From assembly GCA_048213135.1 (NCBI GenBank), contig PS015083.1, positions 1 through 64,000 on the forward strand: a DNA stretch of 64,000 nucleotides, given 5' to 3'. The stretch is from Reclinomonas americana ATCC 50394. Lineage: Eukaryota. Both the position numbers and the translations under genes were made by a program. The notes under the pieces were generated by a model, which made no database searches, had not been told where the DNA came from, and saw only the letters and a program-made list of their open reading frames with translations. Every line of letters begins with the position of its first letter. The first letter of the stretch is position 1. This document shows, piece after piece, positions 28,608 to 49,600 of the stretch.

Positions 28608-30128
28608 AAAGACAGAGGCAGAGCGCGCAACCGAGAGAGACGGAACAAGAAAGATGAGAGACAGCACCAGGAAGAGAAGAGGAACAGGCAGATGTACTGA
28701 AGAATGTGCAGAATCACGGACAGAGAGGCAGAGAAGAGCACGCGAGGAAGAGACGAGAAAGATGAGAGGGACAGTAGGGAACAGAACAGAGAGATGGAGC
28801 ACACACACACACAGAGAAGCAACAGCATCGCAACTTCTGCGCGTAGTAGTTGGTGGCCTCCTGCTCAAAGATGGTCACAAAGGCCTTGTAGCGCTCGACA
28901 ATCAGGGCTGCGCCGACACAGTGAGTTGCTTGCGGTGCACATAAAGGCGTGCATGACTGACTCACCAGTGTTAACAAACTGCAGCTGCTGGCGCATGACC
29001 TTCGGCTCCGCGTCGTACACAATGCCGCGGCCGAACACCGGGATCACAAAGCGATACACCTGCACGAAGGAATGAGTGAGTGGTGTGCGTGAGAATGTTC
29101 GACTTGCGAAAAAACAATGCGTGAAGAATGAGCACCGAGCAATAGATAGCACGACGAGAAGGCAAAGGAGGAGGGGGTGCATGACACACAGATTCCGCAT
29201 CCGAGTGCGTGGGAGGCGTGCATGTGAGAAGAAGGTTCGACTTGCGAAAAATCGCGAAAAATAAGCATTGCCATGACAACATGCACAGGAACACGCAAGA
29301 GAGCAAGGCACACACGCATACACGACAGAGGGAGAGAGAGGATGCACTCGCGCACAGAATCCACGCAGCAAGAGATGCCGTGCATCTCGGTTTCTGCGCA
29401 CCTCACGCGGGCTCAGCTCGTCGTCCTTGCGGTTGAAGAAGATATCGTGACGAATCGGGTGCGTCAGGAACGTCATGCGCTTGCCGAGAATGCTCGCCGT
29501 AAACACATCGCCGTACTGAAAAGGAATCTTTTCAGCGAAAAAAAGTGCGAGAAGCCGCAAAAAAGGAGGGGAGGAGAGAGGGACGCAACACGGCGACGGC
29601 CCTCCAGCAGGAATGCCACGGGGTTCTTGCCAAACGGAATGAGCGTGCCCAGCACCGGCATCCAGCTGATCCACTCCGGCGGTGCATTCGAGTAAATGCG
29701 CTGCGCGGAAAGATGTGAGAACATTTGAATGATCCGGTGCATCTTCTTCTTCTTCTTCGAAAATAAGAACACAGCACATGCGCGTCGACACGTGCACGCA
29801 CGCACACAAAGAGAGAGAGAATGGTGCGGAGGATCACACACTGCAAAGTGTCATGATGATCTCGCGCGCGGATGATCACGCGCATGAAAGAGAACCCGCT
29901 CTTGCATGTGCAGAGAAGCAGAGATCACAAACCGTGGAGAGCAAGATTCAGTGGCAAGGGTCGAAAAACAACAACAACGCGGAAAAGAGTGCGCGCACGT
30001 TTTTCGAAAATGTCGCACCATGTCACACACACAAAAAAACACCCACTCACCGCCTTGATCAGCGACCACAAGTACCGCACCACCAGGAGGCCCACAATCA
30101 CCGCCGCAATGTCAAACGCCAAACCCAT
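26486..30128 (-). CDS. CYP51: Sterol 14-alpha-demethylase (cytochrome P450 51)
   Basis: N-terminal TM anchor, YRFVIPVFGRGIVYD, FAGQHTS (I-helix), KEALRLYPP, PERW, FGRGVHRCLGETFAY heme motif. Stop TAA at 26486. Confidence 0.95.
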
Positions 30129-30202: not shown

Positions 30203-30958
30203 ATGATGCGCGCGCACAGTGCCGCCTTTGTGGTGGCCGTGGCGCTGAGTGTGATGACAGTGACGGTGATGATGATGGCAGAGTCGGCGCATGCCAAGAC
30301 AAAAGTCGTCTTGGAGGCGCCCGGAGGATGATCTTTGGGTCGGGTGAGTGTGCACTCTCACACACACTTGCACACGCTTGCACGCACAGAGAAGGCATAC
30401 ACAGTGCACAGAGTGGAGAGCCGCACTTGTGAACATCTCTCGTCATGTTCGAGAGCAGTTGGGCACTTTTTTCATACTTACTGATTCTCTTTGTGTTGTA
30501 CGCGTGTTTTTATGCGCAGCGCTTTCCCAGTGTAAAGCAGGTGAGCTTATTCTTCACTCACGCGATGTCCATCTCCGCTGATGCTAACAAACGACGATAA
30601 CAACACAGTTCATCACTTCTCATGCTCGGGAATTGTTGCGCCTCCATCATTGTCTCACTGCGTGAGTGTGGGCGCTTACTGATTCTCTGATGTGTGTGTC
30701 TGTCTCGTTAGCCCCGAGGTGGAGGTGTCGCACCGCAGCAGTGTGTCAGCGCGATTGATGTTGGTGGACGACAGCGATGCGTCGGGTGTGCCGTCGGATT
30801 CCGTGACGCTGCATGCCGACACGTCGATTGCCGACCTGTTGAGCATGGTCGGCGACTTTGTCGAGTCGGCTCGTGAGGCCAATGGGCTCGCCCTCACCGC
30901 CCAGCTGAAGGCGCAGGCCGAGCAGAATCCGTTCCGGCCGTCCACGTGTGGCGGGTAA
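30203..30958 (+). CDS. Sep15/SelM-family selenoprotein (Sec at TGA 30329-30331); exons 30203-30343, 30520-30540, 30609-30634, 30712-30958
   Basis: Signal peptide, then KTKVVLEAPGG-U-SLGRRFPSVKQFITSHAREFPEVEVSHRSSVSARLMLVDDS..., which parallels the Sep15 pattern CGU-KLGRFPQVQAF...PVLKLLDD. Three GT-AG introns keep frame past the TGA, and a SECIS-like hairpin follows downstream. Confidence 0.85.
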
Positions 30959-31012
30959 AGCTGCGAGCTTGTCTGCGAGGTGCTTTCTTGCTGCTCTTGT
31001 CCCTTTGCGTGT

Positions 31013-31092
31013 GAAGTCGTGTGAGGCCTCGTCTCCATCAAACCTCGGTGTCTTGTCGCACTGGAGGGGGAGCGTGAGCTGATTTGGATTTC
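31013..31092 (+). promoter_or_regulatory. Candidate eukaryotic SECIS element (type II, GUGA core)
   Basis: Helix I GAAGTC(31013-18)/GATTTC(31087-92); core GTGA(31021-24)...TGAT(31080-83); imperfect helix II with CTCC/GGAG; unpaired AAA 31040-42; apical mini-stem CCTCGGTG/CACTGGAGG. It starts about 55 nt after the selenoprotein stop. Confidence 0.75.
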
Positions 31093-31200: not shown

Positions 31201-32253
31201 TTAGGGTTCGGCCGCCGTGTGCTTTTGTGCTTTCCGGATGGTGAACGCGGAGCGGCGGGCGGAGCGATCGACAGTGAAGCAGGTGTTCTTGATGTCGGGG
31301 TCGAACGGGGCGCAGTGAGCCAGCTCCCACACGCCGATTGACTTCCTCGGTCCCTCGGGCGTGTTGTGCACACACTGCTCCAGATCGACATCGTCGCGGT
31401 GCTCGAGAACCACTGGCGACAAAAGAAATACAGTGAGCGGAATCAACACCAACAAAAGACAGTTGTTGTTGTTGTTGTGCACACACCATCTAGGAGATCC
31501 TTGATCATGCGACGATGGTGGCGCTCTGCATTTGCCGTGTTGAGGTGCAGGCCGGGGTTGGAGTTCACCTCGATCAGCATCGGTCGCCAGTCGGCGTCGA
31601 TGAGAATGTCAAAACCGAGCGGCTGGAACGCGTTGTCAATGTGACCTGTGGTTGGAGGGTGGTCAGTGGCACGGTGCACTGCAAGAGGAAAGAGAGAGAG
31701 AGAGGCAAACCGTCGCGAGGCCAGGCGGCGAGTGTGCGCTTGATGAGGTCCTTGATGCGCGGACGCAGGGTCTTGTCGTAGTAGCCGGCGCCCTTCACCT
31801 CACTGGAAAGAGGGGAAGGCGGTAAGAGGCGGAAGAGGGAGGCGAGGGAAGGGAAAAGGAGAAGGAGGAAGAGAATAGAATGGGAAGTAAAGAGAGCACG
31901 ATGACTGAGAGCAGCGAGCTGGGTGAGCACGAGATCAGCAAGACTGGCAAATATGAGCAGAGACAGTGGGCACGTGGGGCATCGTCGATACGCCCAGAAT
32001 CAAGGAAAATGTGCAGTAAGACTGGTGAACACGGAAGTAAAGAGACTGGTAATTATGTGAACACAGACAGTGAGCACGCGGGCAGCACAGAATCGTGAAG
32101 GCATGAATAGAGAGACAGACGAACACGTGGGCATAGACAGTCAGTACAGAATCGTGAAAGTATGAGCAGAGAGACAAGCAAGTGCGATAACAGTGAAACA
32201 GTGATACGTGAAGCGAGAGCGAATGAGGCAGCAGCGAGACTATAAGTATGAGA

Positions 32254-32292
<39 letters not shown>

Positions 32293-33843
32293 CGGCCAAC
32301 GTGAGAGCAGAAAGACAGTGGGTACAAGAGCAGCAAGGAAGGAATGAACACGAAAAGTGTGGCAGGCGAGCGCGAGCTGGTGAGCACACGGGCATCGACA
32401 GGGGTGAGCAGTGAGCACGAGCAGTGGCCAGAAGAGCAGAGAGACGAGTGGGCACAAGATCAGGAAAGCAAGAGAGCCGTGAGATGAACAGGAGAACATA
32501 TCGTGCCTCGTCACGCAACTCCACATACTGGATGAACGTGGCAGAGTCCCACTGGTTCTCAGGCACGCCATCCACGGTGCCAAAGTCGTCGGACTGCAAC
32601 TGCACCTGTGCGTTGGTGATGTGCCGGAAACTATGCATCGAGCACAGTGAGAGACTGTAAGCAGAACAGCGTGCCTGGCATCCCACGCAACTTGTCCTTG
32701 ATGGCGACTCCATCAGTGTCGTACTCGGACGACGAGAAGCGGCAGTAGTAGTCGGTCGAGATGTAGAACACCATGGGATTCAGCGAGGTGACCTGTGCGC
32801 GTGCGGATGGTGAGTCGCGAGTGGCGTTTGCGGAGCGCTGAGCCGACGAACCAGCACCCACTGGCGAATGTCAAACTTGTAGCCGCGGATCAGCAGCGGC
32901 GGGTCAATGTACCGCTGCACCACAAACGTGCTTGGAATCGGCCTCGTGTCCACATGATCCACCGCCTCGGCGGCATTGTCGACGAGGAAAATGCCTGGCG
33001 CAAACCAACATCATCAGCGAGAAGTGAGCACACACACACACGGACTGATGACAGTGACGCACCGACACCGCGACCCAGGTTGGCCTGCTTGACGATCCAC
33101 GCCTCGCGCTTCACAGGCGTCAGACTCGCGTCGGCACCCACCTCCACCGCCTCGGTGGCACGCTGCACGAACGCTCTGCGTTCCTCATCGTCGACACCGG
33201 TGGTGAGAATGTAGGTCTCGGGGGAGAACTCGGCCACAGCCGCTTTGCCGTCTGTGCGTGGAGCGGGATCTCTCATCAGTGCTGGAGTGAGATCGCAAGT
33301 GCCACGCAAGGCGCACGCAACAAGCAGACTCGAGTGTGCGGACCATCTCGGCCTTGTTGTCGAGAGTGTGCGCATTGCAAAAGTGATTGACCAGCTGTCG
33401 ATGAGGCGTGATGGGCACCACACGGGCGTAGGTGTAACTCCACTTTAGGTTGGCGGCTTGTCTGCAGTGGGGTGATGAGCACGGTGGATGATGCGTTTGT
33501 GTGAGGACAAAGAGAGAGAGAGAGAGTAAACAAACTTGGTGAGTTGGCGTGCTGGTTTCCATCCGCGCGCGTCCAGCTCATCGCGCAGCACCTTCATGCC
33601 ACTGGTGCTGTCGATCCAGTACAAGTACTGCCAGCCTGTGTGTATGTGTGCGAATGTCAGAGAGAGTGTGGGGAGAGAAAGGAGGCCAAGAAAGAAAGGA
33701 CCTTTGCGATTGAATGCATACGGCGGCTCTGCTTCTTCGTCCTTCTCGCTCGCCGCCGACGACTTGCTGGCGCAGTCGGCGCATGCAATGAGGGCGAAGA
33801 GGAGGATGGAGAGGGAGAGGAGGGCGAGAGTGTGTCGGCGCAT
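31201..33843 (-). CDS. Tubulin-tyrosine-ligase-family (ATP-grasp) protein with N-terminal signal peptide/anchor
   Basis: VNHF..[86 protein letters not shown]. The N-terminus is MRRHTLALLSLSILLFALIACADC. Confidence 0.9.
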
Positions 33844-34570
33844 GAGTGAGAGGCGGTCGGAAAAATAGAGTTTTGGACATTCGGTGGATCGAACGCAAGA
33901 ATTTGAAAGCCCTTTGGCTGCGTGCAGGCCAGCGCCTTGAAGGGGTGATGAACGCATGGAGATGCATCCCAGACTGCGGAGGAGGAAGTAAAGGATGGAA
34001 TTGCAAGGGGAAAGACTGCGCTCCAGAAACTGGCGCATGCAATAAATACCGATATCTATCGCGATTGCAACCTGCTTCCCGAAGGCGATCACCCAGAGCA
34101 ACAACAGAATCAGGGTCGAATGGAAGGGAATTAAGGGGAATGGGTTCATGGAACGGCTTTCGAAGGCGGAACAGAAGTACGAGTCTGTCGACACGCCGTT
34201 GCCAACGACGAGGCTCAGCAAACATAAATGTCGTTTGCATGCAGACGCAGTGCCGGTGAATTTTTTCAAGGAGGACGTTCTCGCAAGTTCCTTTGTAAGA
34301 CTATTGGGCGTGAGGATTACGACGGCCACGAAGCTGGCTCGATCGGTCTGTTATCAATTCTGTGCCGTATCCAAGTGGCGACACCTGCGTCGAGTGCGCG
34401 CGCTGTCATATTTGGTGGACAACATGGTGGCAACGCCGGCGCGTTACAAGCCGTCGCAGCTGCTTGCGGCAGTCGAGGGCGCTGAACAAGCTAGGAATCG
34501 AGAGGCGTGCGTTGGTTAAGGTCACGCACAAAGGTATCGAAAAAAATGTAGTCTATCTAAATGTTGTGGT

Positions 34571-46607: not shown

Positions 46608-49600
46608 CTACTGCGGGGGAGCGGCGGCAGTCAGCTGCGCCTCCAACTCCCGCACTCTAGCATTCAGCCGCTCGTTTTGCGCCGTCAACGCATCCACTCT
46701 GCTGTTCAGCTGTGAAATCGTCTCCTGCTGATGCTGCAGCAGCTCATCCTTGTGATCGCGTTGTCGCTCCTCCGCCTGCCGAGCCGCGGCATTCATGTCG
46801 CGCACACGCTGGTTCTGCGCGGCGACACTCTTGAGGAAACCCAGCAAGTCGTCGCGGTCAATCACGCTCGTCGGACTCGGTTCGAGATCCAACATGAAGC
46901 ACATGCGCTTGCGACCACGTGAGGTGTCGTCGTCGGGTGGTGGCGCAGCGCCGCCCTGGCGCGTGAGGATCGACATGAGCTTACGCTCCACCGACTCGTC
47001 CATGCCCAGCATGGTGTGGCGGGCCTGCTTGCCACGCGACGCAGGTGCGTTGACCAGCTCGAAGCCCTCCAGTCGATCCAGTACGAACGAACCAAACGGT
47101 GCATCTCGCGCCTGTACACAATCACCATGCCCGTCAGGTTCTTTTTTTTTGTTGACAACAAGTACGTGCTCCCTTTCCATCTGCACACCTGCGCAAGCAC
47201 ATTGCAGAGACCACCAAATACATGGACGCCCCAGTTGCACGTGATGGTGTGGAAACACTTGAGCCAGGCGGGTGAGCCGAGGATGCTCTTGGTGTTGACC
47301 TGCAGATTCAGCGAGCCGGCCTCCATGGCGTTGCGTCCAAACACTTTGTTGATGGCGGTCTTGTAACTGCGGCGGTGATGGTGATGACACAACGTGGGCA
47401 AGGAGGCGGGAAAAGACACACGTCATGGCAGCCGCTCACCGAGGAATAATCACTTGCTCGAGCGCGTAGACGTACTTGGCGCGCAGGACCTCCGATGTGG
47501 CGAGGATCGTGTTCGCCAACTCCTCGCGTGTGGGATACACAATCTGCGCGCAACAGATGAATACATATACGGCACGCATGTTGTTGTTGACGACTGTAAT
47601 ACCTCGCCAGCAGAACGCGTGACAATAAACGCCAACGACTTGATTTCGTCGTCCCACACCAGCAGGTCGGGTCGCTCAAAGAACTCTGTCACCACGTCCG
47701 GTCCGAATCTGCAACGACGCTCGCGTGAGACATGATTGCGCGCATGCTAATCGTGGAGGAGGGTGTGCGAGTTCGCACCGAATAACAACATCACGGATCG
47801 CCTCGTGGAGGAATTCCTGCGCGTGATCGCAGACCTGACGCCAGTCAGCCGCCTGCTCGTCCGCCGTAGTCGGCGCAAACAGGCGCAGGTTCGACGGTGC
47901 GGCAACCTGACAGATGCAATATCAGCGTCACTTACTATCATCTCAACAGAAGAGTGCAGTGCAAAGAGAGACCCTACCGTCGAGTCGGAGATGGGCCTGA
48001 GCACGGCATCCAGCACGCTCTCGACACCACCCGTGATGGTGGCAATCACGTCGCCCGTCAGTGCCGCGTGCGTCAACATCTCAGCGCCGACCGGGTGCTC
48101 GAGGAAGCTGTCGCGATCAAACTGCATCACAAGAATTCCACACGTTTGAGTCACGACATTTCTTCTCTTTCGCACAACAGAGACGAACCGCGAGACGAAT
48201 CGACGAGCCCTTGCGCTGACGAATATCGGTCATGGCCTGATCAATCAACAGCATGATCTCCGACACTCGCTTGTCGTAGTGCAGGGCGTCCAATGAGAGC
48301 CAGCGCCGGAGCACAGCGGTAAGGTTGTCGCGCTGGTGGCGGTAACAGTCAGCCAACAACCATCGACGGGATGAGAGGCAAGAGCAGGAGGGCACACGCA
48401 CGTTCATGAATTCAATCGAGTCGGCCTTCACAGAAATGCAGTCGACCAGGTAGCCACTGGCGGTCACGGCAGACTCCTGGACATTCAAGTTCGGCTCGTT
48501 CCTGCGAGGGGGGGGGGGGGGGATGGATGGTGAGATGCAGAGAGAAAGAATACTAATGAATGAAAGATATCGACGCACTGGAACACCACTCGCTTCAGGC
48601 GAGTAGACAGCGCCTCCTGCGCCACTGGCTCCACGCACATTTCACGAATGACCTGCACATGTTTCGGGGTCAGATGCATGGCGAAACGTCTCGGGCGGGA
48701 GAAACGCATACCTCAAATACACGCTCGAGTCCGTCGGGACCCTGCAGGAACTCAAAGGCCTCCTTCGGTCGCGACGTGGCCATAATGCTGTTGTTGTCGA
48801 CCTCAATGTCGATCTCGTTCTTCAGCAGCTCACGCAGTTGGCGCCGCAGCTTCGGAATCGCCGTGTTCTGCGTGTGCTCCCTCGCGAATGTTTGCAGGCA
48901 CCACTGTGATGAGCGCGTCAGCTACTCGTATCATTCGCCTCGCTTGTCTCTTGCGGGGGAGACGCACCGAAGCCATCAAGTCTGCCACCGCCTCGGCGGT
49001 TGGGAGGAATCCCGCTTCGCCAATGGCTGACGAAAAGTCGATGCGAATAATGTTCTCGTGCGACACGTCCATCTTGCACTCCTCACCGGTTTCGCGGTGT
49101 GTGATTCTGCACGAGGTGAGCGTAAGCACCAGCTACCGCATTATTTCTACAAAGACAACCACGAAACTGAATGCCCTTCAGCCGATTCCTGGTGAGCGCC
49201 ATCGCACCCGGCGGCACGGCTTGCCCTGCGCCACCCTCCACAAACAGCTCAAATCCGGTGCACAGAATCGGCACCAGGGTGTGTGAGAGAACGGCAGCAG
49301 CACGCGTCGGCACCGCCGATTGCACAATCGACGGCTGGTCGACAGTCACAGTGCGCTTGGGGCCTGCAAGGAACCAGCACGATGAGTACACACGAACATG
49401 CACGTACACACACAAACGGAGAACTCACCCGACAGGTCAGCATCGTTGCCGAGCAGCAGACGAGCCGCAGCGGCACCGGCCGACCGAGCACCGGCGACAG
49501 CTGCGAGGGAATGAGAGAGACCAGTAAGTGACTGTAATGCCTTCAAGAGAGTGTGGATGGGCGACGCAACATCCACAGGCTTGCGCCATCGAGTCGAGGG

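Follow-up and report, generated by a model that had tools for sequence, protein, structure and literature searches.

The window analysed here, a 64,000-nucleotide stretch of DNA from the jakobid Reclinomonas americana ATCC 50394, contains a transcribed member of the Sep15/SelM family (PF08806) in which proline has taken the place of the partner cysteine of the SelM CxxU motif, and whose third and fourth exons are spliced together. We put at roughly 0.6 the probability that this is a functional spliced selenoprotein gene whose product would work as a single-selenol enzyme, resolved by an outside thiol or by mixed Se-S bonds with its clients. The probable selenoprotein is a variant of a known family and overturns no principle. 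Its parts are as follows.

30203-30343, plus strand: exon 1, with an ATG at 30203 or 30206, the signal peptide, the first redox-domain strand and the PGGU site
30203-30292, plus strand: predicted signal peptide, residues 1-30, with an A-H-A cleavage motif, called by rule; 11-residue hydropathy peak of 2.7 near residues 7-18
30320-30322, plus strand: Pro codon in the partner-Cys column of the SelM CxxU, placed by hhalign and hmmsearch alignments
30329-30331, plus strand: in-frame TGA, candidate selenocysteine 43, aligned to the family's Sec column
30520-30540, plus strand: exon 2, 21 nt, bearing the conserved P-x-V-K motif, placed by profile score
30609-30634, plus strand: exon 3, 26 nt, phase 2, with a GTTGCG donor at its end; 3' junction spanned by an EST ORF
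30635-30711, plus strand: intron 3, 77 nt, GTTGCG...TAG, holding an in-frame rival donor, GTGAGT, at 30662
30712-30958, plus strand: coding part of exon 4, 247 nt, with the remaining domain strands and helix, a helical extension, the tail STCGG and TAA
31013-31092, plus strand: candidate type 2 SECIS, from scanner and fold, with helix I at 31013-18/31087-92
31022-25 and 31080-83, plus strand: candidate SECIS core, UGAG and UGAU, with a G before
31026-36/31069-79, 31037-42 and 31043-51/31058-67, plus strand: upper half of the candidate SECIS, comprising helix II, the AUCAAA loop and the apical helix

The TGA, which comes after a hydrophobic leader and LEAPGG, is codon 43 of a 144-codon frame and is followed, 12 nt downstream, by a GTGAGT donor at 30344. 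When the four exons (141, 21, 26 and 247 nt) are joined by script, the frame stays open to a TAA stop at 30956-30958, and the positions and lengths agree with those given in an earlier note on this DNA. All three introns (176, 68 and 77 nt) are GT-AG, the gene region contains no N, and GC3 is 0.75, compared with 0.47-0.52 in the introns.

That same note assigned the protein to the Sep15/SelM family, and profile comparison confirms the assignment. Reference loci were collected from metagenomes, where a scan for a degenerate form of the SelM and Sep15 Sec-helix motif gave 92 stretches; all eight of the locus translations tested belong to Pfam PF08806. Against a main profile of 38 distinct full-domain members, chosen by eye among the motif-scan loci, the joined four-exon model scored 32.9 bits, while the best of 5,000 shuffles scored 9.2. 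Members of this profile were selected by motif; a second, independent profile, made from 120 listed database matches (the named ones mostly Selenoprotein F), gave a weaker but concordant 9.9 bits, with shuffles reaching at most 6.5. In the hhalign comparison of the joined model with the family, which gave 96.8% across 83 columns, the TGA falls in the Sec column and Pro in that of the Cys; in the helix that follows Sec, L, P, V and F are retained. Omission of exon 2 lowered the main profile score to 12.8 bits, and other exon choices reached 19.5 bits at most. When the window was scanned unspliced in six frames with the profile, no score exceeded 3.9 bits; hence, the gene is invisible without splicing. 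Pfam searches with single-exon pieces and with the EST ORF returned no match, a search of solved-structure (PDB) sequences with single-exon pieces returned one chance match only, and the ESM Atlas returned scores of 0.81 or less and no relevant family. Folded from the single sequence, the C-terminal half had a pLDDT of 61 and a strand-strand-helix order that fits a thioredoxin-like fold; fold searches with this low-confidence half model gave a best Z of 4.6 and no Foldseek match at E < 0.001. A single motif match on a viral contig was dismissed as chance.

The partner-Cys column holds Cys in 38 of 38 profile sequences and Pro in the window protein, so that the PGGU reading of the active site, proposed in the earlier note, is upheld by the profile alignments. 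The motif scan gave 93 matches, 54 of which had downstream domain support of at least 15 bits; these comprised 34 CxxU forms, 19 CxU forms and one cut off by a contig end. Of the domain-supported Sec relatives, 53 have their upstream sequence visible and every one of these keeps the partner Cys, a count biased to canonical members since the pattern would miss the window gene itself (one extra residue). Among the other 39 matches, Cys is present at -2 or -3 in 16 and not in 23, which we took as chance matches or, for one locus (L040), as unreadable for a probable intron. The window protein also lacks a near-invariant Gly (35 of 38 profile members) and Pro (37 of 38) ahead of the third strand, a loss that was absent from the earlier account. 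SELENOF homologues of algae and plants with altered motifs (CMR, DQW; PMC7539508) indicate that loss of the redox Cys can be tolerated in the family. In those homologues Sec is lost too, whereas the window protein keeps Sec and a SECIS candidate; the main text of that algal survey, supplements aside, mentions no SELENOF form retaining Sec without Cys in the parts available to us (PMC7539508). From the sequence, UGA43 probably codes for Sec, and the gene is probably a real, fast-evolving, Cys-less SelM-type selenoprotein gene.

Evidence from RNA comes from a phmmer search in which the exon 4 peptide was compared with 1.84 billion representative sequences and which gave two matches. One of these, P0003, is 98% identical to the exon 4 peptide and is labelled in EukProt as an ORF of the R. 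americana EST EC786382.1; the other, P0004, was rejected as a repeat artefact. P0003 reads EF|PE over the exon 3-4 junction, the product of the GTTGCG donor at 30635, which shows transcription of the gene and removal of intron 3 at the sites that had been proposed. The ORF starts past the UGA and covers only the exon 3-4 junction of the three, and RNA support for the four-exon model extends to that junction and not to the others. It also bears out the prediction that standard gene callers would truncate or miss this gene, the N-terminus having been missed here. P0003 starts MLG, a reading for which the G run at 30627-30629 would have to be one base longer than it is in the window, and two other residues, encoded at 30764 and 30797, also differ. 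Single-pass ESTs often slip in G runs. Because the frame of the window fits the family before and after this spot, we regard these discrepancies as probably EST errors or strain differences; if the extra base were real, that allele would be frameshifted. An antisense-frame search for further ORFs of the same EST found nothing, a word-indexed search with P0003 returned P0003 alone, and a metagenome scan for related loci gave 595 candidates of which none was confirmed. No orthologue of the selenoprotein was found by phmmer, the metagenome scan or the word-indexed search.

Recoding of UGA43 to Sec would depend on the hairpin at 31013-31092, which we infer to act as a SECIS. The helix I, core, AAA and apical stem described in the earlier note are all present, with 6 bp in helix I, 9 bp in helix II and 9 bp in the apical helix, and the core has the UGAN/KGAW form as it is given in PMC3753652. 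The emphasis on a "GUGA-type" element as a special feature is not sustained: the default SECISearch pattern accepts RTGAN, the oversized upper half is the unusual trait, and a literature search for GUGA-type SECIS elements found nothing relevant. The hairpin lies 55-64 nt past the stop, and 369 spliced nt separate its core from the UGA, a distance that exceeds the minimum of 51-111 nt stated in PMC3316567. On neither strand of the window did the scanner find another match as good as the hairpin, and 672 kb of local shuffles contained none as good either; the scanner recovers 15 of 39 control loci. Shuffles of the UTR were as good as the hairpin in 0 of 3,000 cases at a strict cut-off, 7 of 3,000 at a looser one and 66 of 3,000 at the loosest; as the strict cut-off is the candidate's own score, the middle figure is the fairer. 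Plain folding energy is ordinary (z -0.44). Rfam, with a sensitivity of 2 in 20 control loci, gave no match on the hairpin. The spacing departs from that of the control matches, with 14-15 nt from RTGA to AA and 39 nt from AA to GA (11-13 and 16-34 nt, respectively, in the controls). In a by-hand comparison with the patterns as set out in the supplement of PMC3753652, the hairpin failed all four SECISearch1 patterns, for which the RTGA-to-AA limit is 13 nt, and was borderline for the apical-loop limit of SECISearch3, passing only with helix II drawn long. Oversized apices are not confined to the window gene among protist-like members: the SECIS candidates at L027:416-498 and L053:1268-1351, two SelM-type loci whose products have long C-terminal extensions, also have long apical parts, with 34 nt from AA to GA.

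Other arrangements of this region were considered. On visual inspection, a SECIS with CC in its loop and its core placed at 31011 was discarded as having no GA partner on the 3' side. The 3' core of the candidate could instead lie at 31075, a placement that violates KGAW, and the runner-up hairpin of the window (47732-47781) is antisense within another gene, outside a 3' UTR, and is a false positive. At 30944-31024 the protein ends TCGG and then TAA, mirroring the SelM CGGU motif, and the frame past the TAA runs for 21 further codons, six of them Cys, ending at the UGA of the hairpin core. This Cys-containing frame is probably a chance product of a TG-rich UTR. No tRNA genes were found in the 64-kb window.

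The architecture of the predicted protein favours SelM. The Cys-rich domain of Sep15 is absent, as the earlier note maintained, and Sec lies only ~12 residues past the predicted cleavage site. Also SelM-like are the signal peptide directly ahead of the domain, the xxGU spacing of the redox site after the first strand and the L-x-R-x-P-x-V-K-x-F helix, and the SelM sub-profile scored slightly higher than the Sep15 sub-profile (27.5 versus 25.1 bits). Counted from the conserved Phe, the codon that intron 3 interrupts, in phase 2, is the ninth; in 6 of 14 inspected SelM genomic loci (L003, L012, L016, L024, L043 and L086) a GT stands at this position and similarity stops there, these two signs being what defines the introns in the six loci. 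The position of intron 3 thus also appears to favour SelM over Sep15. The window protein differs from SelM in having Pro for Cys, in one extra residue after Leu-Gly, in the missing Gly and Pro before strand 3 and in lacking an -EL or -DL ending, which 11 of 25 SelM-type controls have. In a tree of only 88 columns its branch, of length 5.5, lies between the SelM and Sep15 groups and is not nested among SelM. With Sep15 it has in common the domain and the LGR-FP wording after Sec, and Sep15, too, is described as having no retrieval peptide (PMC6266307). It is, however, without the CxU and the N-terminal cysteine-rich domain of Sep15.

A likeness to Fep15 (SELENOE), compared here by description only, had also been suggested. 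Fep15 is said, after Novoselov in 2006, to have Sec with neither a nearby Cys nor a UGGT-binding domain, and it ends in RDEL, a tail that the window protein does not have. Fep15 is reported to have arisen at the root of jawed vertebrates (PMC13134290) and is described as confined to vertebrates (PMC3316567). With such an origin the jakobid gene cannot be a Fep15 orthologue, and its loss of Cys would be independent. The suggestion would therefore hold as an analogy, but not as orthology given the published range of Fep15, and the likeness is at most convergence. A functional analogy only can be drawn with ERp44 and CxxS-type PDI proteins, which likewise have one catalytic residue without a partner; ERp44 belongs to a different family and has Cys rather than Sec, plus an RDEL tail. 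ERp44 is listed with CRFS in a table of PMC12781119.

The signal peptide would take the protein into the ER lumen, and the predicted mature form is ~114 residues long and contains a single Sec and, in the tail, a single Cys. A KDEL-like tail is absent, the protein ending STCGG, and 14 of 25 SelM-type controls are also without -EL or -DL. Sep15 is described as ER-resident because UGGT binds its cysteine-rich domain (PMC6266307). The designation "ER selenoprotein" in the earlier note is doubtful: entry into the secretory pathway is predicted, but ER retention is unsupported for a protein with neither a KDEL-like tail nor a UGGT-binding domain. As the partner Cys is missing, an internal selenenylsulfide would not close in the usual way. 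Most likely, Sec would instead attack a client disulfide, or become oxidised, with formation of a mixed Se-S bond that glutathione, a PDI or another external thiol would release. Alternatively, Sec may retain the client in a long-lived Se-S bond in the manner of ERp44, a CxxS protein that holds its client. Lacking a retrieval signal, the protein would be kept by such partners or travel on along the secretory route. Against this explanation stand the EST and hairpin discrepancies described above, and the lost Gly and Pro and the very long branch also fit relaxed selection.

Relaxed selection is the basis of one rival account, in which the gene is a decaying SelM paralogue or transcribed pseudogene, the UGA is mostly a stop, and the Cys, Gly, Pro and retrieval tail have been lost as a result. 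Such decay would match the very long branch and the disappearance of several conserved residues, the apparent one-base shift in the sole transcript record, the off-pattern SECIS, the weaker codon bias than in the neighbouring CYP51-like gene (GC3 of 0.75 versus 0.89) and the lack of relatives in database and metagenome searches. However, the 144 codons, three introns, signal peptide and hairpin are all intact, an unlikely outcome of long neutral drift, and the L, P, V and F of the post-Sec helix are preserved in a gene that is both transcribed and spliced; the one-base shift is of a kind common in single-pass ESTs at G runs. We consider decay improbable. Misreading of the UGA itself, either by an assembly error for TGY or TGG or through assignment to another residue under a changed nuclear code, is hardly credible: the assembly is gappy (12 N runs), but an error falling exactly on the family's Sec column and accompanied by a SECIS-like hairpin is unlikely, and nothing was seen that points to an altered code.

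Other readings accept Sec43 and find it a partner within the protein. Cys142 in the tail STCGG may be a relocated resolving residue, with the flexible end returning to Sec43 to form an intramolecular Se-S bond. It is the sole Cys in the EST-supported isoform, the single-sequence model has a low-confidence coil there after a long helix, with small residues on either side, and in the oxidising ER a single Cys is usually found with a partner. That model spans the C-terminal half only and does not give the reach of the Cys to Sec43, the tail Cys could equally dimerise or anchor the protein to a partner, and 12 of 25 SelM-type controls have a downstream Cys alongside a retained CxxU, so that a tail Cys need not resolve anything; we judge this bond unlikely. 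Also doubtful is the larger proposal that the active site of SelM has been remodelled in a jakobid lineage, by dropping of the CxxU Cys and the conserved Gly-Pro loop, with a Cys on a flexible C-terminal arm as the resolving residue and the protein leaving the ER. If true, the family would have a redox mechanism new to it, and the partner Cys would have been lost a second time, independently, with decoding by an oversized SECIS that standard patterns miss. A partner could also come from alternative splicing, and the earlier claim of an only Cys, which holds in the EST-supported isoform, is conditional on the donor at 30662 being unused. This donor, which the earlier note does not mention, is a perfect GTGAGT, the commonest consensus, keeps the frame and would add nine residues with a Cys in the loop after the first helix. 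The sole EST uses 30635 instead, the leftover intron of 50 nt would be below all nine other modelled introns (at least 58 nt), the profile score is 19.5 bits versus 32.9 with the 30635 donor, and the shared intron position is lost. A partner Cys from this source is very unlikely, and a single-selenol enzyme remains our preferred reading.

The donor that the EST does use is itself unusual. GTTGCG 5' splice sites, at 30635 on the plus strand and at 28834 and 27469 on the minus strand, open three of the nine modelled introns, following exons that do not end in G; P0003 provides transcript-level support for one of them (30635). The two minus-strand sites account for two of the six modelled introns of a cytochrome P450 gene (26486-30128, minus strand; Pfam p450 on one exon) that lies head-to-head with the selenoprotein gene and that, by its motifs, resembles the sterol 14-demethylase CYP51. 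Its joined frame is open for 381 codons, and only 74 nt separate its likely ATG, at 30128, from the ATG at 30203, which implies a very small bidirectional promoter that may be common to two ER-targeted genes. On the other side, a tubulin-tyrosine ligase family gene (Pfam TTL, ~31201-34350, minus strand) converges on the selenoprotein gene, and the two have in common a ~240-nt 3' region containing the hairpin. The apparent SelM intron at the intron 3 position begins GTATCC or GTATCT in five of the six loci (L003, L012, L016, L024 and L086), a sequence that resembles a minor-spliceosome (U12) donor. It is possible that the GTTGCG intron of the window is an old U12-to-U2 conversion.

Sec machinery is described in other Discoba, namely kinetoplastids and Naegleria (PMC4561486), and a literature search of titles and abstracts found no description of jakobid selenoproteins or of a jakobid selenoproteome. 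The selenoprotein proposed here, from a gene missed by sequence searches, Rfam and SECISearch1 patterns alike, would extend the Sep15/SelM family to jakobids. The accepted oxidoreductase model for SelM and Sep15 is built on the CxxU or CxU pair. Fep15, the known exception, is still called functionally uncharacterised (PMC13134290). A second and very distant lineage that keeps Sec without the Cys would be a natural test of whether Sec is sufficient and of what the Cys is for.
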